Part shown: positions 903 through 24,589 of the stretch, one piece after another
How positions within the stretch are numbered: the first letter of the stretch is position 1
Layout of the letters: each line of letters starts with the position of its first letter
Origin: a virus
Lineage: Duplodnaviria; Caudoviricetes
Reading direction: 5' to 3' (one strand)
IMG/VR virus record: IMGVR_UViG_3300011339_000762
Coordinates: 1 to 35,155 of that record
Length of the DNA: 35,155 nt
The notes under the pieces: model-generated
The model's input: only the letters and a program-made list of their open reading frames with translations
The model's database searches: none
Told to the model about the DNA's origin: nothing
Made by a program: the position numbers and the translations under genes

Positions 903-1167
903 TATTAAGAGCGAGTTTGCCAAAAGACTGGCAGAGCGTTTAGAGCAGATGGATAACATAACTCCTGAAACGTTATCTGATATGCTTATCGAATCGGGCA
1001 TCGTTTCTGAGCGTAGAGTTTTGCAGTATTGTGCCATCTGCGAGTTTTACGATAACATAGGGACCAAAACAAAAACGCAGACAATAAAAGAACTGTCTGC
1101 GAAATATTGTATCTCTGAGCGGATCCTGGTTGAACTTACAGGTCGGGAGCGGAGGTTTTTAGTTTAA
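862..1167 (+). CDS. Hypothetical protein with C-terminal HTH (Mor-like regulator possible)
   Basis: TIKELSAKYCISERIL resembles an HTH; start uncertain (862 or 877). Confidence 0.55.
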   Translation: MQLKPMNFMEYMDNIKSEFAKRLAERLEQMDNITPETLSDMLIESGIVSERRVLQYCAICEFYDNIGTKTKTQTIKELSAKYCISERILVELTGRERRFLV

Positions 1168-1900
1168 GTTTTTTGAGTGCCCTTTGGTGAAGGTATTTAA
1201 CTCCTTGCTGTGACATATTTAACTCAGTTGCCAGTTCCTGCCATGTTTTTGGAAAGGGAACAAGATAAACCTGGTGAATGATGTGCTGTTCCTTGTATGA
1301 CAGCTGTTCCATCAGTATTTTGATACGGTCTGCCATATCTTTGTTCTCATAGTAGTCCAAAAAGTTATCATCAGAAGCATATTGCTTTTCGTATTCATCA
1401 TCGTCTCCAATCTTTTCATCCATTGACTCTGTTGATGGCTTGTGAATAAAGTTTCTATAAACGCTATCGGTAATCTTTAGTTTATCTTTGATTTCCTCTT
1501 CTGAGTGGGTGTCAATTAGTTCAAGTATCTTTCTGTTGAAAATATTCTGTTGCTCCGATATTCTGATAACATTCCGAGTGTTACGAAGGTAAGACATTAT
1601 GGCTTGCTGAATATACCATACAGCATAAGAGATAAACTTGAAGCCTTTGGTTGCATCGTATCTCTCAGATGCCTTAATCAATCCAATCATTCCTTCCTGG
1701 ATTAAGTCTTTAAGGTCACTTGCTTTTCCTCCGTATTGCTTTGCGACACTTACAACAAAAAGCATACTATGTTTGACAAGTTGTTCGGGTGTTGCTGTAA
1801 CTTCCTGCTCAGGTGTGAGTGGTTTATACTTTGCAGCTTCAGTTAAAAAGTTCTGAATGTTGTGCTGTGTGAACGATTTTTCTATTTGTATTGGTCTCAT
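1136..1900 (-). CDS. Sigma-70 family RNA polymerase sigma factor (primary-sigma-like, no region 1.1)
   Basis: Region 1.2 (KYKPLTPEQE), region 2 (DLIQEGMIGLIKASERYDATKGFKFISYAVWYIQQAI), region 4 HTH ending ALKKLK. Confidence 0.93.
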   Translation of the reverse strand: MRPIQIEKSFTQHNIQNFLTEAAKYKPLTPEQEVTATPEQLVKHSMLFVVSVAKQYGGKASDLKDLIQEGMIGLIKASERYDATKGFKFISYAVWYIQQAIMSYLRNTRNVIRISEQQNIFNRKILELIDTHSEEEIKDKLKITDSVYRNFIHKPSTESMDEKIGDDDEYEKQYASDDNFLDYYENKDMADRIKILMEQLSYKEQHIIHQVYLVPFPKTWQELATELNMSQQGVKYLHQRALKKLKLKTSAPDL

Positions 1901-2436: not shown

Positions 2437-2442
2437 TGGTAG

Positions 2443-2607
2443 TTAATTTTGATTGTTATAGTTTTGGTCTGATGCCTGGATGAGTTGTTCAGTTTCGATA
2501 TCATAGGCATTGATAAAGTCTGCCAGGGTAAGTTTTTGTTTTCGGTCCATGTACATACGGAATAAAAACTCAACTGCTGTTTCTACTTCTTCATGTTCTT
2601 CGTTCAT
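2443..2607 (-). CDS. Small hypothetical protein (54 aa, TAVE-motif), not in ORF track
   Basis: MNEEHEEVETAVEFLFRMYMD...; ATG overlaps the upstream stop, fills the gap exactly, resembles 3204..3413. Confidence 0.75.
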   Translation of the reverse strand: MNEEHEEVETAVEFLFRMYMDRKQKLTLADFINAYDIETEQLIQASDQNYNNQN

Positions 2608-3888: not shown

Positions 3889-3913
3889 GTTGTTGGTAGT
3901 TTTAAAAAGTGAT

Positions 3914-4643: not shown

Positions 4644-4682
4644 GATGGTAGTTTTTTGATGTGTTATAAATCGATTGCATTA

Positions 4683-4712
4683 CAAAAGTAGTAATAATAT
4701 TTTATTACACAA
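4683..4712 (-). promoter_or_regulatory. Bacteroidetes-type promoter (TTG-N19-TACTTTTG) with 18-bp operator in the spacer
   Basis: -7 box at 4683-4690, TTG at 4710-4712, GTAATAATATTTTATTAC at 4691-4708. Confidence 0.8.
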
Positions 4713-4784
4713 ATATAAAAGACATTTTTTTGCACTAAAATGATAATATTTTTCTATTATAATTGTGCAAATTCATTTTTTGAT

Positions 4785-14941: not shown

Positions 14942-14974
14942 AACTTGGTAGTTTTAAATGATTAAATAATAGCA

Positions 14975-14997
14975 CAAAGATAATATTATTTTATTAC
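14975..14997 (-). promoter_or_regulatory. Promoter -7 box TATCTTTG overlapped by operator variant
   Basis: CAAAGATA at 14975-14982; ATAATATTATTTTATTAC at 14980-14997. Confidence 0.72.
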
Positions 14998-15007
14998 ATT
15001 GTATCTT

Positions 15008-16726
15008 TTACAGAATATTTTTTAAATTTATTTGCACACATCTTCCAATTAACCCTGAACTGAATCGGGTAGTGTTCCGTTTTGCTGCTCCTGGATGCCT
15101 TGTTAAGACCGTTCCGTAACTGACTGCCCAAGGTGTGCGACTGAGAACCTGCTTAACAAATACTGAGGTGTTCAAAATAAGCAGATATTTTTCTTTCTGT
15201 TCCTCAACTACTCGCAAACCAAGCCTCTGAAGCCTTTCATCTGCTGCATCTTGCTTAATTTTTGCCTGTGGATTATATTCTGAAGCATATTCTACCAACT
15301 CACCAACAGTAACAGTACCAATGAAATCTCCTTCAATCCTTGTTTCGTGCTGTAAAATAGTCTGAAGGCATCTTTGCTCATCAGTTAGGTCTTCTTTGTC
15401 CTCAAGGATCCCTTTATAATGCAATATTATACCAACTTCATTCAATGCTGTTTCAGGTTCAACGACATCATCGTTCCAGGTATGCCACCATCCACCAAGC
15501 AATGCTCCGTATTGGTCACCAAGAGCACGATCACCGACAAGTCCCGACACAGCTTCCGTAAAAATGTAAATACTTTTTAGCATGTTCGGTAACAAATTCA
15601 CCATTCGTGCAATAAAGCGTAAGCCAAAGTCACCAGTAATGGTTTCCTTCTTACTTTTATTCAGTTCCTTAAACTTATCCTGGTTGCTGTGCTTTGCAAG
15701 TTCAAAGATTGTGAACCTTCTCTTGTCGCTGTCATTTACCAACTGCGGATTGATTGATACCATCAGGAAGCAACTGCGAACAAAATAGTCCGTTGCTTTT
15801 CCATCCTTGCCACCTTTCGGAATAGCAGGACTCTTCTCAGAACTTCCTGCCCTGGCAAGTGCAATAACTTCCTGCATCCTTCGAGCTGCATTCTCATCAT
15901 TGCCCTCCGATTCATCAATGGTAACTGGCATAGCATCAGAATTGAGCTTCTGCCTGATCGCTGCCTCCGTTGCTGCTGTTCCCTGAGCATTGATACAAAA
16001 GTCAGACAGTACAGGATGAATAATCTGTTCCAAAACATATGTCTTTCCATTTCCTCTTGGGCCAGTAATCCAGCAATGAGGTCTCCAGGATAGCGCACCA
16101 CAAACAGGAGCAATGGCTAACCATCCTGCAAGTAACTTACCATCAGCTTCAGTATTCCAGTTCAGTCTTGAAAGTAATCTTGTCAGTTTGGCACATTCAA
16201 ACTTATCCATCGGAGTTTCAATCGGGATGCGGATATTCTTTCTCATCTCATAGGTATAATCCGTATCAATACTGCCAAGGTTATACCTAATCTTCTCGCT
16301 GAGTAACTGCATACCGGTATGGAAGATGATTCTGTCGCTTTCCTTCCAGGCTCCTCGCCCTCTTATGCTCTGTAAATCGAAATATCCTACTGCATTACAC
16401 ATTGTAATCAGGTAGTCTGCAATAAATTCGCTCTTATCAAAACATTCGTTTTGCCAAAACTCTATCGGTGCGAGCTGAACAACATGCTGCTTGGTAAACT
16501 TCGATGTGCTGAATGCCAAAATTGCATTGCTCAGCTTCGAGTAAAAGTAGAATCTCTGAAATCTGCTTTCAGAATCCCATCCTAATGGTTTAAAATAACC
16601 ACCGACAAATCCTCTTTGGTCTGTTGTTGGTGTGTTGCCTGGTGCTGCTTGTGCTTTTGGTTTGCGCTTTGATTTTTTTGGTTCTTCCTGATCGGATTCC
16701 CAATTGATTGGTGGTAGTTTTTTCAT
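15008..16726 (-). CDS. P-loop replicative helicase/origin-binding ATPase of the primase-helicase type, with no recognisable primase domain
   Basis: Walker A GPRGNGKT, Walker B PVTIDESE, SIN...SDKRRF sensor/Arg finger; IRGRGAW motif. Confidence 0.8.
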   Translation of the reverse strand: MKKLPPINWESDQEEPKKSKRKPKAQAAPGNTPTTDQRGFVGGYFKPLGWDSESRFQRFYFYSKLSNAILAFSTSKFTKQHVVQLAPIEFWQNECFDKSEFIADYLITMCNAVGYFDLQSIRGRGAWKESDRIIFHTGMQLLSEKIRYNLGSIDTDYTYEMRKNIRIPIETPMDKFECAKLTRLLSRLNWNTEADGKLLAGWLAIAPVCGALSWRPHCWITGPRGNGKTYVLEQIIHPVLSDFCINAQGTAATEAAIRQKLNSDAMPVTIDESEGNDENAARRMQEVIALARAGSSEKSPAIPKGGKDGKATDYFVRSCFLMVSINPQLVNDSDKRRFTIFELAKHSNQDKFKELNKSKKETITGDFGLRFIARMVNLLPNMLKSIYIFTEAVSGLVGDRALGDQYGALLGGWWHTWNDDVVEPETALNEVGIILHYKGILEDKEDLTDEQRCLQTILQHETRIEGDFIGTVTVGELVEYASEYNPQAKIKQDAADERLQRLGLRVVEEQKEKYLLILNTSVFVKQVLSRTPWAVSYGTVLTRHPGAAKRNTTRFSSGLIGRCVQINLKNIL

Positions 16727-19078: not shown

Positions 19079-19119
19079 AACTTTTGTAGTTTTAATATGT
19101 GATTAATTGATTACGGTTG

Positions 19120-19146
19120 TAAAGGTAAGTAATAATATTTTATTAC
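19120..19146 (-). promoter_or_regulatory. Promoter -7 box variant TACCTTTA plus perfect operator copy
   Basis: TAAAGGTA at 19120-19127; GTAATAATATTTTATTAC at 19129-19146, identical to 4691-4708. Confidence 0.75.
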
Positions 19147-20753
19147 GTTGTACTTTTAATAAGATTTTTTTTCTTATATTTTAAAAATAATTTCCATAAT
19201 GGCAATAAAGCATCGCTAATGTGTGATTCTGTAAGATGTATGGTATTTATTCCATATTCTTCATTTAATAATTTTTTATACACTAAATATAAATTTTTAT
19301 TATGGAAATCATCTCCTTTAAAAATTCTTTTCAATTGTTCTATCATTGAATTTGCTTTTTTTACAATATTGCCTAAATGATAATAATATACCCACCAATC
19401 TTTATTTCCGAATATTTCTTTTTTAATCCATAATTCTTCAAAATATTTAAAACAAATATCATTATTTACTTTCTGCTCCTTTCTGTTCAGCAGCTCTTCC
19501 AGGGTGGTGGTATCTTTTACTGCGATGCCTTGTACTATTTTCAGCTCACGTTTTTTCTTCTCATTAACCAGTCCGCATTTCGGGCAGCACTCTTCTGACT
19601 TCTCATACACAAAGTAGCAGCTTTCACAAAAATAATATTCATCATACTTCTCTTCCTCTTGCTTCTTCTTTTTGCGTTTCTTCTTTATTCCTTCCAATGA
19701 CCAATCTCTTGGCATCAATGGGTGCTTATGTCTGCCGATGTTACCAACGTGATCAAGTATGATGCACTTCTCTTTGCCCTCACAAGGTCTTAATCCTCTT
19801 CCTACAATCTGTAAGTATAATGCCATCGACATGGTTGGTCTACATAAACCTACAACAGCCACAGCAGGTATATCTGTGCCCTCGCTTATCAAGTCGCAAA
19901 ATGTTACAACATTGATTGATCTGTCAGCAAGTCCTTTGAATATCCGCTCAATATCTTCATCTTTCAGCTCACCATGAACTGCTTCAGAGGTATATCCTGC
20001 TTCCCGAAACTTATCAGCCAACTTTTTGGACTCCGCAATACTGATGCAACTGTAAATCGCTGGCTCACTAGGTGCGAGTTTTGTGTACTCCTTTACAGCA
20101 TCACCAACTAAACCCGATTGCTCAATCAGCTTGTCAAGTTCGTTTTTATTATATTCTCCGTGCTTGTCGAGCTTCACATTCTCCAATCCTTTAAGATTCT
20201 TGAAAGTATAATAATCAGGCATCACCAGGTTGCCCATCTTCACCAGTTCAGCAGGTGTAGGACCCAATATCATATCCTGGAAGATATCTCCAAGTCCTTG
20301 CCCATCTGTTCTGATTGGTGTGGCTGTTACTCCAAGGGTATAGACTTCGGAGTAATGATCCAGGATTGTTTTCCAAGTTCCTGCATTACTATGGTGGGCC
20401 TCATCCACAATAATCAAATCAGGTACTGGTACATCAGCCAATCTGTTCTTCAAAGTCTGAACGCTGCAAATCTGTGCTGGCAAGTAGTACTGCTTAGAAT
20501 ACCCACCTGCAATAATGCCGTGACGAAGATTATACTTCTTGCATCGCTCAGAGATCTGCCGCACCAGGTTCTTTTTATGCACCAGGAAGAACACAGTCTT
20601 ACCTTTTGCCATAGCCGTTTCTGCTATGTAAATAAAGGTCTCGGTTTTTCCTCCGCCTGTTGGTAGTACGTACAGCACTCTTTTGTTCTTTTTGAGGCTG
20701 TTACGGATGCCTTGTACACCATCTTCCTGATATAGCCTAAGAGTTACGCTCAT
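19143..20753 (-). CDS. SF2 DEAD/DEAH-box helicase with C-terminal zinc ribbon
   Basis: LPTGGGKT, DEAHH, TATP, SEGTD, QIVGRGLR, CESC...CPKC; likely start 20753. Confidence 0.93.
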   Translation of the reverse strand: MSVTLRLYQEDGVQGIRNSLKKNKRVLYVLPTGGGKTETFIYIAETAMAKGKTVFFLVHKKNLVRQISERCKKYNLRHGIIAGGYSKQYYLPAQICSVQTLKNRLADVPVPDLIIVDEAHHSNAGTWKTILDHYSEVYTLGVTATPIRTDGQGLGDIFQDMILGPTPAELVKMGNLVMPDYYTFKNLKGLENVKLDKHGEYNKNELDKLIEQSGLVGDAVKEYTKLAPSEPAIYSCISIAESKKLADKFREAGYTSEAVHGELKDEDIERIFKGLADRSINVVTFCDLISEGTDIPAVAVVGLCRPTMSMALYLQIVGRGLRPCEGKEKCIILDHVGNIGRHKHPLMPRDWSLEGIKKKRKKKKQEEEKYDEYYFCESCYFVYEKSEECCPKCGLVNEKKKRELKIVQGIAVKDTTTLEELLNRKEQKVNNDICFKYFEELWIKKEIFGNKDWWVYYYHLGNIVKKANSMIEQLKRIFKGDDFHNKNLYLVYKKLLNEEYGINTIHLTESHISDALLPLWKLFLKYKKKNLIKSTT

Positions 20754-20949
20754 CGATATATTTTTTAAGGTTAGCATCTTCTTGTTTTCCAAGCTCATCA
20801 TTTATGCGCTCTAAGTACATCAATGTTTGTGGCTCAGTCCTGGACCATTTGTCCAATGTTTGTTTGTGGATGCCTGTTCTGCGGCACAGCTCACGGATGC
20901 TGATACCTGCACGATCTGCTCGCTCTTTGATTTTTTGGTAAGTTTTCAT
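20737..20949 (-). CDS. Cro/CI-like XRE HTH regulator
   Basis: GISIRELCRRTGIHKQTLDKW; first gene from the divergent promoter. Confidence 0.85.
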   Translation of the reverse strand: MKTYQKIKERADRAGISIRELCRRTGIHKQTLDKWSRTEPQTLMYLERINDELGKQEDANLKKYIDERNS

Positions 20950-20988
20950 TTTTTTTTAAGATTTTTGAAAAAATATTGTTTAATAGTG

Positions 20989-21016
20989 CAAATGTAATAA
21001 AATTTTATTATCTTTG
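20989..21016. promoter_or_regulatory. Back-to-back promoters (TACATTTG on -, TATCTTTG on +) bridged by one operator
   Basis: CAAATGTA at 20989-20996; TATCTTTG at 21009-21016; GTAATAAAATTTTATTAT at 20994-21011. Confidence 0.8.
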
Positions 21017-21053
21017 TGTAACAATTCGTTAAAATTTTAAAAAATAACTACCA

Positions 21054-21812
21054 ATGACAAACAAACAGTATCACTCAATGGTCGAGTATCTGAGCAAATC
21101 TTCACTCGATCAACTCCACAAATCACCTGCTCACTTCCAGGCTTACATTCAAGGTGAGAAAAAAGAACCAACAGCATCAATGATCTTTGGCAGCCTTGTT
21201 CATTCTGTGATGTTCGACCAGGATGACTTTGCTATCATGCCATCATGTGACCGCAGAACTAAGGAAGGCAAAATGTTGTACGAGGCATTCCTTGAAACAG
21301 CAGAAGGTAAGGAACTGATTGTTACCGCTGAGCAGCATGAACAGGCATTACTTATCACTCAGTCAGTTGCCAAGCATCCTAAGGCAGCAGCACTCCTTTC
21401 TGAAGGTGTTGCAGAGAAACCTGTATTCGGTCAACTCGGTGGTATGCCTGCAAAGTGCAAACCTGATTTTCTCAATACCAAGTTTAACGTACTGGTTGAC
21501 CTGAAAACCACTAACGATGCCAGTCCTACTGAGTTCGCCAAGTCTGTTTGGAACTTCCGCTATCATGTTCAGGCAGCTATGTACATGGACTTGACCAATG
21601 CAAAAAGATTTTTCTTCATTGCTGTTGAGAAAGAAGCTCCATTCAATTGCGAAATCTACGAACTCGATGAAGAGTCCATCGCCATCGGAAGAGCAGAATA
21701 TCTCGCAGATATCGAAACCTACAAAAAATGCCTGAAAACTGACAACTGGCATGGTTACACAGAAGAAGCTGCAATTCATGTTATCGGTTTACCTGCTTGG
21801 GCAAAAAAATAA
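21054..21812 (+). CDS. RecE-like PD-(D/E)XK exonuclease (DUF3799-like)
   Basis: LSKSSL, FGSLVH, KCKPD, VDLKTT, YHVQAAMY, FIAVEKEAP. Confidence 0.9.
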   Translation: MTNKQYHSMVEYLSKSSLDQLHKSPAHFQAYIQGEKKEPTASMIFGSLVHSVMFDQDDFAIMPSCDRRTKEGKMLYEAFLETAEGKELIVTAEQHEQALLITQSVAKHPKAAALLSEGVAEKPVFGQLGGMPAKCKPDFLNTKFNVLVDLKTTNDASPTEFAKSVWNFRYHVQAAMYMDLTNAKRFFFIAVEKEAPFNCEIYELDEESIAIGRAEYLADIETYKKCLKTDNWHGYTEEAAIHVIGLPAWAKK

Positions 21813-21838
21813 TTCTTAATCTTTAAATAACTACCACA

Positions 21839-22366
21839 ATGTCAAACATCACAAAACTTCCAACATTCCAGGATCTGATTACAGATACACAGGAATCTTT
21901 AAAGCAAAATGCCTTAACTGTACTACTGAATCAAGATCCTCCTAAGGCTTGGCTTGTAACACATCCGATGATAAAGGGGTATAATTACATGCCAATTGAG
22001 AAAATTGAGTACCTTTTAACACGAATTTTTACAAAATGGTCTGTTGAGGTAAAATCTGTTCAAATCCTCGCAAACAGCGTGTGCGTCACGGTTAGACTCT
22101 TTGTAACAAACCCGATTACCGGAGAAACAGAATGGCAAGATGGTATTGGTGCTGCTCCGATACAAACAGACAAGGGAAGTGGCGCAACTGATTGGAACTC
22201 AGTCAAAACGGATGGAGTTCAGAAGGCTGCACCAGCTGCTGAAAGTTACGCAATAAAAGACGCAGCGGAGAAATTTGGTAAGATTTTCGGGCGTGATGTG
22301 AGCAGAAAAACAACGATGGATTACAACTCGTTACTTAAAAAAAGCGATTTTAACGACCAAGTTTAG
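21839..22366 (+). CDS. Single-strand annealing protein (Rad52/Sak-like)
   Basis: Follows the exonuclease; WQDGIGA...AAESYAIKDAAEKFGKIFGRD. Confidence 0.75.
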   Translation: MSNITKLPTFQDLITDTQESLKQNALTVLLNQDPPKAWLVTHPMIKGYNYMPIEKIEYLLTRIFTKWSVEVKSVQILANSVCVTVRLFVTNPITGETEWQDGIGAAPIQTDKGSGATDWNSVKTDGVQKAAPAAESYAIKDAAEKFGKIFGRDVSRKTTMDYNSLLKKSDFNDQV

Positions 22367-22385
22367 TGTGTTAATAGTTTGTGTT

Positions 22386-22418
22386 AGAGTGCCTTATGTC
22401 TGGGCACTCTTTTTTTTT
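22386..22418 (+). terminator. Intrinsic terminator of the recombination operon
   Basis: AGAGTGCC-N9-GGCACTCT followed by T8. Confidence 0.9.
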
Positions 22419-22423
22419 GCCCA

Positions 22424-22641
22424 TGTAACAACTTTTTTAACGTGTTACAATTTTGATACAGATAACTAATTGATATTCAATTCATGTAACAATGTAACGC
22501 TTGTAACGGGAAAATACATTCATTATGAGGAACACTATTATACTATTATATATACATACATAATACATGTTACATCTGTTACATTGTTACAATATAGTAG
22601 TAGTGGGTGTTCTGATGTAACAAAAATGTAACGCTTGTAAC
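22424..22641. repeat. TGTAAC iteron cluster around an AT-rich spacer; putative replication origin
   Basis: TGTAAC at 22424, 22485, 22493, 22502, 22616, 22627, 22636; inverted TGTTACA at 22443, 22568, 22577, 22585. Confidence 0.8.
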
Positions 22642-22666
22642 ACTTCACTTTTTCAAAAAAAAAACA

Positions 22667-22674
22667 TATTTTTG
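22667..22674 (+). promoter_or_regulatory. -7 box TATTTTTG for the structured RNA / terminase operon
   Basis: Matches TAnnTTTG; no well-spaced -33 TTG seen. Confidence 0.55.
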
Positions 22675-22675
22675 C

Positions 22676-22772
22676 AGTGCTTTGTAAGCAGGTTTTTAGT
22701 TTGTCTCTCGGGGAAGGTTATTGGTAGTTTCCTTCCCCATTTTAAAAATCTTCGTTTTAAGGCACTTTTTTT
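22676..22772 (+). ncRNA. Candidate structured sRNA/leader with loop antisense to AACTACCA boxes
   Basis: GGGGAAGG-TTATTGGTAGTTT-CCTTCCCC hairpin (22710-22738); ends AGTGCTTT/AAGGCACT can pair and are followed by a T run. Confidence 0.6.
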
Positions 22773-22872
22773 ATGCGAGTGGTATATTGATACCAAAAAA
22801 GAAAGAAAATTGATTGTAGGTACTAAAGAATGAGAAGTAAGGCTATAAGCACCATTAAAAAAATGAATTAAA

Positions 22873-23229
22873 ATGGCTTTATTTGAAAAAGGACATAAAC
22901 TGGCAACTGGTAGACCGAAAGGTAGCCTAAACAAAACCACAGCCGAAACAAAATCCTTCCTGGCAAGGATAGCAAATAAGCTCGGTGAGCATATCGAGGA
23001 AGACCTCGAAATGATGGAACCTAAGGACCGAGTTAAGATTTGGCTTGAGCTTCAGGAATACCTAATACCAAAACTCAGCCGTACCGAGATAACTGGCGAA
23101 GATGGTGGAATGATAGAGATAAAACAAACACTAAAACTGGAGAACCTTGGCCTTGATCAACTTAGAGAACTTGAACGAATTGCTGAACTTGCAGCGGATC
23201 CGACAACTTATAGCAGCGAAGGATTTTAA
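22873..23229 (+). CDS. terS: Terminase small subunit
   Basis: FEKGH...GRPKGSLNK N-terminus, RTEITGEDGG; directly before terL. Confidence 0.85.
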   Translation: MALFEKGHKLATGRPKGSLNKTTAETKSFLARIANKLGEHIEEDLEMMEPKDRVKIWLELQEYLIPKLSRTEITGEDGGMIEIKQTLKLENLGLDQLRELERIAELAADPTTYSSEGF

Positions 23230-24589
23230 ACGATTCGTTAAGCATACCAAACCTGACTACCAATTCTCCTGGCATCACAATCTGCTGATTGAGTATCTTC
23301 AAAAGTTTGCAGAAGGCAAAATCAAAAAATTGATGGTATTTATGCCTCCGCAACACGGAAAGTCCGAGCTCACATCGAGAAGGCTTCCTGCATATCTGCT
23401 TGGCATCAATCCGAAACTAAAGATTGTCGGTTGCTCATATTCTGCTGACCTAAGTCGAAGTTTTAATCGTGATGTACAGCGCATTATGGATGATGATGTT
23501 TACATCGATGTCTTCCCAAACACCAGGCTAAACTCTTCCAACATCCGTACATCTGCCAAAGGTTCTTTCCTGCGCAATGCCGACATCTTTGAGATCGTTG
23601 AGAATGTTGGTTTCTATAAGTCCGTTGGTGTTGGTGGTTCTCTTACTGGTACGCCAGTAGATGTCGGCATCATCGATGACCCAGTTAAGGATGTTGTTGA
23701 GGCAAACAGTATGACATACCGAGCAAGGGTTTGGGATTGGTACAATGGTGTTTTCTCTACTCGTCTGCACAATAACTCACAAGTCTTAATTACTCAAACC
23801 CGATGGCACGAAGATGATTTATCGGGCCGAATCTTAAAGCAGAAGGATGCACACGAATGGACAGTCTTAACGCTTCCAGGTATCTTGATGACAGCGGACA
23901 AAAGGCAAGATGACCCGAGAAACATTGGTGAGGCTTTATGGCCCGAAAGACACAGCCTTGAAAAACTGCAAAAGTTCCAGGACAATTCTCCGAGATTGTT
24001 CCAAGCTATGTATCAGCAAGACCCGAAACCTTTCGAAGGTGGTTTGGTGTATCCAAAATGGAATGCCATTGACGAGGCTGAGTACAGACAGATTGGCATT
24101 GAGCCGATTTACGGACTTGACTTTGGTTACAGCACCAGTCCTGCGGCATTCGTTGAGATTAAGTTGGATATGCTGACCCGAAAGATTTACATCAAGCAGC
24201 TGATATACAAGCGAGGGATGGGAATCGATGAACTTGGTGCCGAGATAAACAGAACGATACAGACGAGCAGAGGCAAGATTATTGCAGATTCTGCTGACCC
24301 TATTTTGATTGACCATCTTCGAGGCAAGCACCGATTGAACGTACACAAGGCTGACAAGGGCAAGGACTCGATAAGCTACGGCATCTCAGCCATCAATGAG
24401 TTTGAGTTGGTGGTTACCAAGGAAAGCAAGGATGTTGCAATTGAACTTTCGAACTATCGATACAAAGAGGATGCCGATGGTAATCCATTGGATGAAGCGA
24501 TAAAAGAATTTGACCATAGTTTGGATGCTATGCGCTATGCAGTAACATCTGTAATCTCAAAGAAAAACAACAAATTTATATTATTATGA
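23147..24589 (+). CDS. terL: Terminase large subunit
   Basis: MPPQHGKS Walker A, IIDDP Walker B, TRWHEDDL, GLDFG, ADSA, DHSLDAMRY nuclease motifs; TTG start uncertain. Confidence 0.96.
   Translation: MALINLENLNELLNLQRIRQLIAAKDFKRFVKHTKPDYQFSWHHNLLIEYLQKFAEGKIKKLMVFMPPQHGKSELTSRRLPAYLLGINPKLKIVGCSYSADLSRSFNRDVQRIMDDDVYIDVFPNTRLNSSNIRTSAKGSFLRNADIFEIVENVGFYKSVGVGGSLTGTPVDVGIIDDPVKDVVEANSMTYRARVWDWYNGVFSTRLHNNSQVLITQTRWHEDDLSGRILKQKDAHEWTVLTLPGILMTADKRQDDPRNIGEALWPERHSLEKLQKFQDNSPRLFQAMYQQDPKPFEGGLVYPKWNAIDEAEYRQIGIEPIYGLDFGYSTSPAAFVEIKLDMLTRKIYIKQLIYKRGMGIDELGAEINRTIQTSRGKIIADSADPILIDHLRGKHRLNVHKADKGKDSISYGISAINEFELVVTKESKDVAIELSNYRYKEDADGNPLDEAIKEFDHSLDAMRYAVTSVISKKNNKFILL

Follow-up and report, generated by a model that had tools for sequence, protein, structure and literature searches.

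The window, i.e. the whole stretch of 35,155 nucleotides analyzed here (IMGVR_UViG_3300011339_000762, positions 1 to 35,155), is a complete circular phage genome of 34.9 kb, whose terminal 211 bases are the same at both ends. Among its products are a sigma-70-type factor (1136..1900, minus strand; regions 2 and 4 recognized by domain match), a GH73 glucosaminidase, SSB, primase, helicase, an HTH protein, a PD-(D/E)XK exonuclease, a Rad52/Sak-like protein, terminase, and virion genes. The stop codon of the GH73 gene (2436) overlaps the start of the sigma-70 gene (1900). The 48 window proteins compared with PHROGs and the 29 compared with Pfam included no member of an integrase, resolvase, or partition family, and none of genomes G001-G004 is classed as a provirus. 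The promoter -7 consensus of Bacteroidota is TAnnTTTG. Boxes of this type, together with leaders that are A-rich and devoid of Shine-Dalgarno motifs, indicate a host in the Bacteroidota; GTDB genomes, scanned twice, yielded neither a relative nor a host genome. A tract at 22423-22645, with GTTACA/TGTAAC repeats in both orientations and an AT-rich core, is conserved in the closest group of phages (family A, described below) and in L017-L027 and is likely the replication origin.

Upstream of the TerS-TerL genes lies the -7 box TATTTTTG (22667..22674, plus strand), read exactly where the original prediction had placed the promoter of a master antisense RNA and assigned by the TAnnTTTG consensus. 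Its context, ACA-TWTTTTTGCA, is common to this promoter and that of the head-protease/capsid operon near 4724. It is the only box of such type found upstream of TerS-TerL and may double as the terminase-operon promoter; the promoter sequence CATAWWTTTGCA is present in all 14 family-A sequences. The candidate small RNA (RNA A; 22680..22772, plus strand, with tentative ends) is about 90 nt long and could serve at the same time as the terminase-operon leader. Only chance-type ORFs overlap 22667-22772, and indels among the relatives, whose segments measure 99, 103, 104, 106, 107, or 111 nt, break any frame; therefore the segment is non-coding.

This segment (22667-22772) folds at -31.7 kcal/mol (z -5.53), and none of 200 shuffled sequences was equally stable. 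The core hairpin (22710..22738, plus strand), which agrees in all its parts with the one proposed before, has a G-C-rich stem of 8 bp, GGGGAAGG (22710-22717) and CCTTCCCC (22731-22738), and a 13-nt anti-box loop UUAUUGGUAGUUU (TTATTGGTAGTTT at 22718-22730). The core stem is formed in 11 of 11 single-sequence folds. A lower variable stem, AGGUUUUUAG/UUAAAAAUCU (22690..22751, plus strand), lengthens the hairpin; some form of it appears in 9 of the 11 folds, and it is absent from the alignment consensus. The loop had been described as exposed, which is true of its GGU (unpaired probability 1.0), whereas AUU and AGU are partly closed by a 3-bp helix (0.14-0.5), the opening of which is predicted to cost only 1.4 kcal/mol. 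The basal stem AGTGCTTT/AAGGCACT, also part of the original prediction, was rejected, as its pairing is complete in the window alone, 1 of 11 aligned sequences: the position reads AAGACACT in nine of them, and five have an unrelated 5' arm. Relatives without the hairpin also have the 3' arm AAGGCACT (22759-22766, with the U run behind it ending at 22772), which is therefore probably an element of its own. The U run is conserved in the alignment, and a terminator scan did not call the RNA A hairpin. Overlapping this end, the motif TTTAAGRCACTTTT upstream of TerS (22756-22772) recurs in phages that lack the hairpin and have a different TerS, and is probably an independent element. An Rfam scan of 20500-24000 returned no family at the hairpin, even with E values up to 10, and no gathering-level match was obtained in the six loci scanned.

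The octamer AACTACCA (box A), to which the loop is complementary, occurs nine times in the window against 1.33 expected, a count that none of 100 shuffles reached. Six copies lie directly upstream of start codons, within 13 nt. Of the other three, one occupies +7..+14 of a gene, another is the minus-strand reading of the loop, and the third, at 721, is inside a gene and far from any start. When all 49 start regions were ranked by net pairing energies that include opening costs, the seven box genes took ranks 1-7 (-12.4 to -8.5 kcal/mol), in agreement with the regulon proposed earlier. The best site (21046..21053, plus strand; -12.4 kcal/mol net, rank 1/49) precedes the ATG of the PD-(D/E)XK exonuclease gene (21054), whose leader is predicted to form a 12-bp duplex with the loop over the AUG. 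Others precede the GH73 glucosaminidase gene 2436 (2437..2444, minus strand; -11.1 kcal/mol, rank 2), the 104-aa gene 3888 (3894..3901, minus strand; -10.0 kcal/mol, rank 3), gene 4643, the first of a leftward operon (4646..4653, minus strand; -9.4 kcal/mol), gene 14941, the first of an operon including SSB (14946..14953, minus strand; -9.2 kcal/mol), and the Rad52/Sak-like annealing-protein gene 21839 (21829..21836, plus strand; -8.5 kcal/mol). The intragenic copy (16712..16719, minus strand; -9.2 kcal/mol) falls on Lys-Leu-Pro codons of the primase-type gene 16726 and may be kept by coding constraint.

Contiguous pairing of 10 nt for 21054, 2436, 14941, and 3888, 9 nt for 4643, 8 nt for 21839, and 7 nt for 19078 was reproduced on the leaders. 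The 9-nt length of the coding-region site also stood, but the gene had been mistaken for a DEAD-box helicase and is the primase-type gene at 16726 (phrog_35358). A degenerate box, AACTACAA, precedes 19078 (19084..19091, minus strand; -4.5 kcal/mol, rank 12/49), and the orthologous leaders of G001-G003 carry the full box. As stated before, the HTH repressor gene is without a box; the claim that late genes lack the site does not hold, since 10687 has a weak G-U-containing one (-7.1 kcal/mol net, rank 8 of 49 start regions). The loop pairs over at least 7 nt with 7 of the 47 automatically called start regions of the window and with 9 of 1235 from unrelated phages of similar composition (p about 2e-7 to 1e-7). 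A blind scan drawn from 148 non-redundant loci (646 hairpin/strand tests) gave 11 matches below 1e-4, with 0.065 expected; ten of these are family A and one is L107.

Family A consists of 14 TerS loci, 13 of them with upstream DNA, and the hairpin and box are kept in all 13, the stem being preserved as predicted; L117-L119 and L121 contain additional RNA A copies. Eleven family-A sequences keep UUGGUAGUU and AACTACCA leaders. Within the family one stem pair has G-U variants in 4 of 11 sequences, the stem tolerates an extra pair, and two-sided changes are few. In L012 and L013, which are identical here, the loop reads UUGUAGUUUAU, a stem A-U pair has changed to C-G, and three leaders, whose boxes have lost a C, read actacaATG or aaactactATG. 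The L012 loop ranks four orthologous genes first of 29, at about -7 kcal/mol only, and the window's loop does at least as well on the L012 leaders (-6.6 to -10.4 kcal/mol). A second stretch of L012, located toward the 5' end, reaches -11 to -14 in pairing, at a predicted opening cost of 7 kcal/mol, and the primase-gene box A is retained despite the changed loop. Loop/box covariation within family A is thus equivocal in this case; RNAalifold mis-registered L012 on alignment A4, so that the pair counts from it understate covariation.

Four further genomes, G005-G008 (G007 rated complete, the others at 68-80%), have no RNA A, and the start regions matching its loop number 0/38, 0/32, 0/60, and 1/45, respectively. 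The exonuclease, Sak, primase, and helicase of G005-G007 are 55-74% identical to those of the window, and the exonuclease and Sak leaders contain box A in 4/4 family-A genomes and in none of these three. Relatives that keep box A therefore keep a complementary loop, and those without the RNA are without box A, as the original prediction implied. The scan for relatives by exonuclease returned one locus. Four sequencing runs with small shares of such phages, probably DNA, yielded contigs of relatives, and no RNA data set was among the runs listed. Nine loci of relatives without RNA A (L018:10925-10995, plus strand, L017, and L021-L027) have a different promoter box and a two-hairpin unit of about 65 nt before the repeat tract, composed of GCGG..CCGC, AACCGCTG..CAGCGGTT, and a U tail. 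In G007, a hairpin with a U tail (L289:4983-5020, plus strand) has the loop UUUUUGAAGUU, which matches 3/59 starts over 9 nt (p 3e-4), and the G007 group may have its own tag system.

A different box, AAACCTTATT (box B), is found at 9/57 genes of G010 and 7/57 of G011, members of family B (G009-G011), in which the terminase and capsid proteins are 56% and 27% identical to those of the window. Box B was seen first and its complement was then sought in the family-B intergenic DNA, where the element carrying the anti-box ranks 1 in G011 and 3 in G009 and G010. This element, RNA B (about 115 nt; L324:9989-10125, minus strand; L318:1945-2058, plus strand; L319-L323, L325, and L326), consists of a TATATTTG box, a 5' hairpin, the linker CAUAAAAUAAGGUUU (anti-box), a 3' hairpin, and a U tail. 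It is present in nine loci, each with at least two ACCTTAT leaders, pairs over up to 15 nt across the AUG, and lies away from the terminase genes. RNA B has no common words with RNA A beyond 7 nt and gave only sub-threshold matches to Rfam families. Its hairpin loops are mutually complementary, and among eight aligned sequences three pairs changed on both sides (0/500 shuffles, a figure inflated by the relatedness of the sequences); hence RNA B behaves as a structured RNA, and the loops are candidates for a kissing loop or pseudoknot. The accessibility of its anti-box is uncertain because standard folding pairs it weakly with the U tail. Two other assignments in this family were discarded: the anti-box as the start region of an antisense gene, the ORFs there being of 5-15 codons, and the G-rich hairpins of G009-G011 as RNA A homologues, since their loops mismatch box B and they stand behind a structural gene; they were treated as ordinary terminators. 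The G009 contig (L293:1000-3000 and the end of L294) has an identical structural gene set at both ends with differing sequences and is possibly a strain-mixed assembly.

The 3888 gene, 76% identical between the window and family B, has orthologues whose leaders contain box A in 4/4 family-A genomes, box B in 3/3 family-B genomes, and neither in 4/4 others (G005-G008). The GH73 leaders follow this pattern in part: they contain box A in 2/4 family-A and box B in 2/3 family-B genomes, with cross-matches of 8 nt to seed B in G001 of family A and of 7 nt to seed A in G007. A third box/anti-box pair (CAGACATGA, family C) was chosen post hoc. Its terminator-like hairpin (L075:8184-8229, L071:4581-4626, and L157:5839-5871, all plus strand) has the loop U(A/G)UUUUCAUGUCU(G/U)G, complementary to acagacATG leaders, and a U tail, and is situated upstream of the terminase region. 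In L075, 5 of 15 genes pair at -11.6 to -17 and the next one at -6.5. The first blind scan was run without G-U pairs and missed family C, which is not significant after blind-scan correction (1.6e-4 x 646); a search with its stem pattern retrieved 33 loci, three of them family C.

Matches of at least 9 nt to seed A occur in 4/47 of its own start regions (window) versus 0/736, to seed B in 8/57 (G010) versus 4/780, and to seed C in 3/15 (L075) versus 3/918, so that the seed-by-genome matrix is block-diagonal for the three families. The co-variation of loop and box that had been put forward as the decisive comparison is observed between families, where tag and anti-tag are replaced together, and is the equivocal one of L012 within family A. 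The independent families number two to three, not dozens.

A conserved promoter is found on the plus strand of RNA A and no conserved box on the minus strand; a plus-strand RNA is also favored because the stem G-U would be A-C on the other strand. The promoter had been called late, and it does have the ACA signature of the capsid-operon promoter, unlike the early promoters. In five promoters of early type the box is preceded by TTAT or TTAC, with a TAATAAAATTTTATTA-like element lying upstream. Near-palindromes of this kind, at 20993-21009, 19127-19145, 14982-15000, and 4690-4710 of the window, are candidates for an operator of the HTH protein or an extended promoter element. In G001 both the RNA A and the head-protease/capsid promoters contain ACATATTTTTGCAC, and in family B the TATATTTG of RNA B matches boxes before the head protease and lysin. 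Because the RNA A promoter resembles that of the capsid operon, late expression is suggested for RNA A, with the phage sigma-70-type factor a candidate activator of the late-type promoter, a role that we infer, like the early and late labels of the genes themselves, which come from promoter class and gene identity. Behind four of the five early-type promoters the first gene bears a tag (a weak one for 19078 in the window), the HTH gene being the one early-type unit without a box.

That the RNA and the box interact by pairing appears highly probable from the sequences. We further consider it fairly probable that a late antisense RNA of about 90 nt shuts off early-gene translation through the AACUACCA tag. 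In the proposed mechanism, plus-strand transcription from TATTTTTG, timed late as for the capsid-operon promoter, would give either a short transcript or, at the 5' end of the terminase mRNA, a stable leader. Pairing would nucleate at the open GGU of the loop and extend to 8-12 bp at positions -14 to +14, and the duplex at the start region would exclude the 30S subunit. Bacteroidota ribosomes are reported to ignore the Shine-Dalgarno sequence and to need unstructured, A-rich start regions (PMC7797042); 30S exclusion is therefore plausible, since adenines upstream and little structure favor initiation. A duplex of 10-12 bp over the AUG would probably prevent it, and the predicted coverage of the AUG in families A, B, and C fits translational blocking. 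A single RNA would lower expression of recombination, replication, and sigma genes alike, because the first gene behind most early-type promoters is tagged and the tagged GH73 gene overlaps the sigma start; through the latter overlap repression could feed back on late transcription.

The same base-pairing repressor could instead be constitutive in a carrier or plasmid-like state and provide c4-like immunity or superinfection exclusion, the tags being immunity groups. The fit of its promoter box to the host-type TAnnTTTG consensus, the HTH repressor gene as the only early-type unit without the box, and the difference of tags between families are in line with this, and the c4 RNA is described as a regulator of P1 antirepressor expression (PMC8201110). 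Given, however, that the scanned proteins include no integrase, resolvase, or partition family, that G001-G004 are not classed as proviruses, and that the promoter context of RNA A is that of the capsid operon, we regard it as unlikely. The hairpin could also be a terminase-leader attenuator, with early mRNA tags that bind its loop and alter read-through into the late genes: the family-A hairpin stands between the only upstream promoter box and TerS, and the family-C and G015 hairpins, which have U tails, are upstream of the terminase region. Yet strand invasion is unsupported because no tag extends its complementarity into the stem arms, the tags follow start codons and not promoters, and RNA B, away from the terminase genes, has its own U tail, all of which makes an attenuator quite improbable. 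The pairing may also be real with another outcome, either a boost of translation by a stand-in anti-Shine-Dalgarno adaptor or guidance of mRNA processing or stabilization. Several boxes are indeed at -14 to -3, near Shine-Dalgarno spacing, and host ribosomes do not use their own anti-Shine-Dalgarno (PMC7797042); but in three families the AUG lies within the strongest duplexes, the primase-gene site is intragenic, and a late-type promoter is ill-suited to an activator of early genes, and we consider such outcomes rather remote.

The boxes might, on the other hand, be sites of an RNA- or DNA-binding protein, with the hairpin, as DNA or minus-strand RNA, serving as a decoy or autoregulatory site, a CsrB-like sponge in the original prediction. 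Sponges of the CsrB/RsmY type present the mRNA motif repeatedly, in multiple loops of a single molecule. This segment contains a single motif copy and has no Rfam match, its G-U pairs would be A-C mismatches on the minus strand and weak in DNA, and in families B and C it is the anti-box strand that has the U tails. The TerS leader of G002-G004 does contain a TAnnTTT(G/A) box on the minus strand, which is missing in the window and G001. Although a protein repressor of T4, RegA, binds AU-rich start regions (PMC3014915), the G-U pairs and the polarity of promoter and U run disfavor the sponge, which we judge very unlikely. Finally, an ordinary hairpin loop could match the A-rich bias of start regions by chance, as AACTA-like words are common in AT-rich leaders and the weaker candidates, L065 and the G004 loop, are not significant; with p ~1e-7 for the window against the start regions of other phages and with family-specific tag swaps, a chance match is scarcely credible.

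Late shut-off by loop pairing, the reading that we prefer, has partial precedents. The c4 RNA pairs through short loop-borne sequences, and changes in the RNA or target define immunity. Known from P1 and P7 (RF01695), c4 is an antisense RNA by which a phage regulates its own mRNA in trans (PMC8201110, PMC2864571), and RNA A would likewise be phage-encoded and is predicted to act in trans on its own mRNAs. However, c4 controls one operon (icd-ant) in phages of Proteobacteria, whereas the RNA A tag marks 6-8 dispersed genes in at least four transcription units. The c4 model had no match up to E 10 in 20500-24000, and no antirepressor family was found among the scanned window proteins, the box sites being at six to eight other genes. 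The sar RNA of P22 and OOP and aQ of lambda also block translation or stability of phage mRNA by pairing, but each is described as acting on one gene and as encoded opposite to it or proposed to act in cis (PMC12197685), whereas RNA A, with a seed of 8-12 nt, has sites as far as 20 kb from its own gene. In Yfr1 and Yfr10 one short conserved unpaired motif pairs with many mRNAs; it is located between two stems in Yfr1, similar to family B, and in a stem loop in Yfr10, similar to family A (PMC6778093). These RNAs are host chromosomal, with metabolic targets and a UCCU-containing motif different from that of RNA A (PMC6778093), and neither RNA A nor RNA B had an Rfam match to the Yfr1/Yfr10 family.

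In T4, RegB and RegA inactivate many early mRNAs via a shared start-region motif and ease the early-to-late transition (PMC3014915). Both are proteins, of which RegB is made early and cuts GGAG (PMC3014915), whereas the tag reader here is a predicted RNA; in the proposed mechanism RNA A would be the RNA counterpart of RegB/RegA shut-off. By analogy, RNA A would work like a Yfr10 doing the job of RegB, and it is a member of no named family. Unusually conserved motifs upstream of some starts (SAS) have been described in Cluster K mycobacteriophages and Cluster EF Microbacterium phages; these are purine-rich, of 13 bp (e.g. GGGAAAGGACCCC), and extended-Shine-Dalgarno-like, which box A, AACTACCA, is not, and no complementary phage RNA is named for them in the available text (PMC7302621). 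Phage antisense RNAs in the accessible part of one review have either a single phage gene or host genes as targets (PMC12197685). In the openly accessible literature that was covered, we found no description of such a circuit, and as judged by its sequence RNA A is a putative novel variation on trans-acting antisense control.

Early shut-off by phages is only partly understood even in T4, where the known motif-based route consists of the proteins RegB and RegA. Many phages may possibly switch from early to late by an RNA master regulator and a private start-region tag, re-keyed in each lineage, although we lean slightly towards doubt on so general a rule. If it is true, the differing scaffolds (plain hairpin in A, kissing loop in B, terminator loop in C) would mean repeated invention of an undescribed class, and a gene moving between phages would be re-tagged to the resident RNA. 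Dispersed own genes addressed via a co-evolving tag would then form an RNA layer in phage timing, which would offer an explanation for orphan start-associated motifs, a simple rule to predict regulons from sequence, and a natural source of orthogonal RNA/tag pairs for controlling translation in Bacteroidota, where initiation proceeds without Shine-Dalgarno.

Several weaker cases were noted in other genomes. No box/anti-box pair was present in five of five cultured Bacteroidota phages (KJ018210, OK632025, MN812239, NC_011222, and MN929097). In G017 (L306:9530-19401), a record 65% complete, TGTATTTA is found in 4/26 start regions, with no complement in 20 of 23 kb read. The loops of L065 and G004 were rejected as anti-boxes, not being significant in the cross test; that of L065 (5424-5450, minus strand), UUCCAUUUGGUU versus aaccaATGGAA, has weak statistics, and a search with its stem pattern retrieved 118 loci, mostly unrelated, that served as background. 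Moderate statistics were obtained for candidates in G015 (L302:7790-7830, minus strand), with the loop CGUUGUUGUGAAU versus TTCACAAC at -25..-15, and in G016 (L107:16229-16264, plus strand), with the loop GCAAUCGUUGU versus caacgATG. Hairpins with pyrimidine-rich, anti-Shine-Dalgarno-like loops were also observed in unrelated phages, at L164:680-720 (minus strand) and L176:10856-10886 (plus strand), with p of 2e-4 and 6e-3, respectively, before correction.
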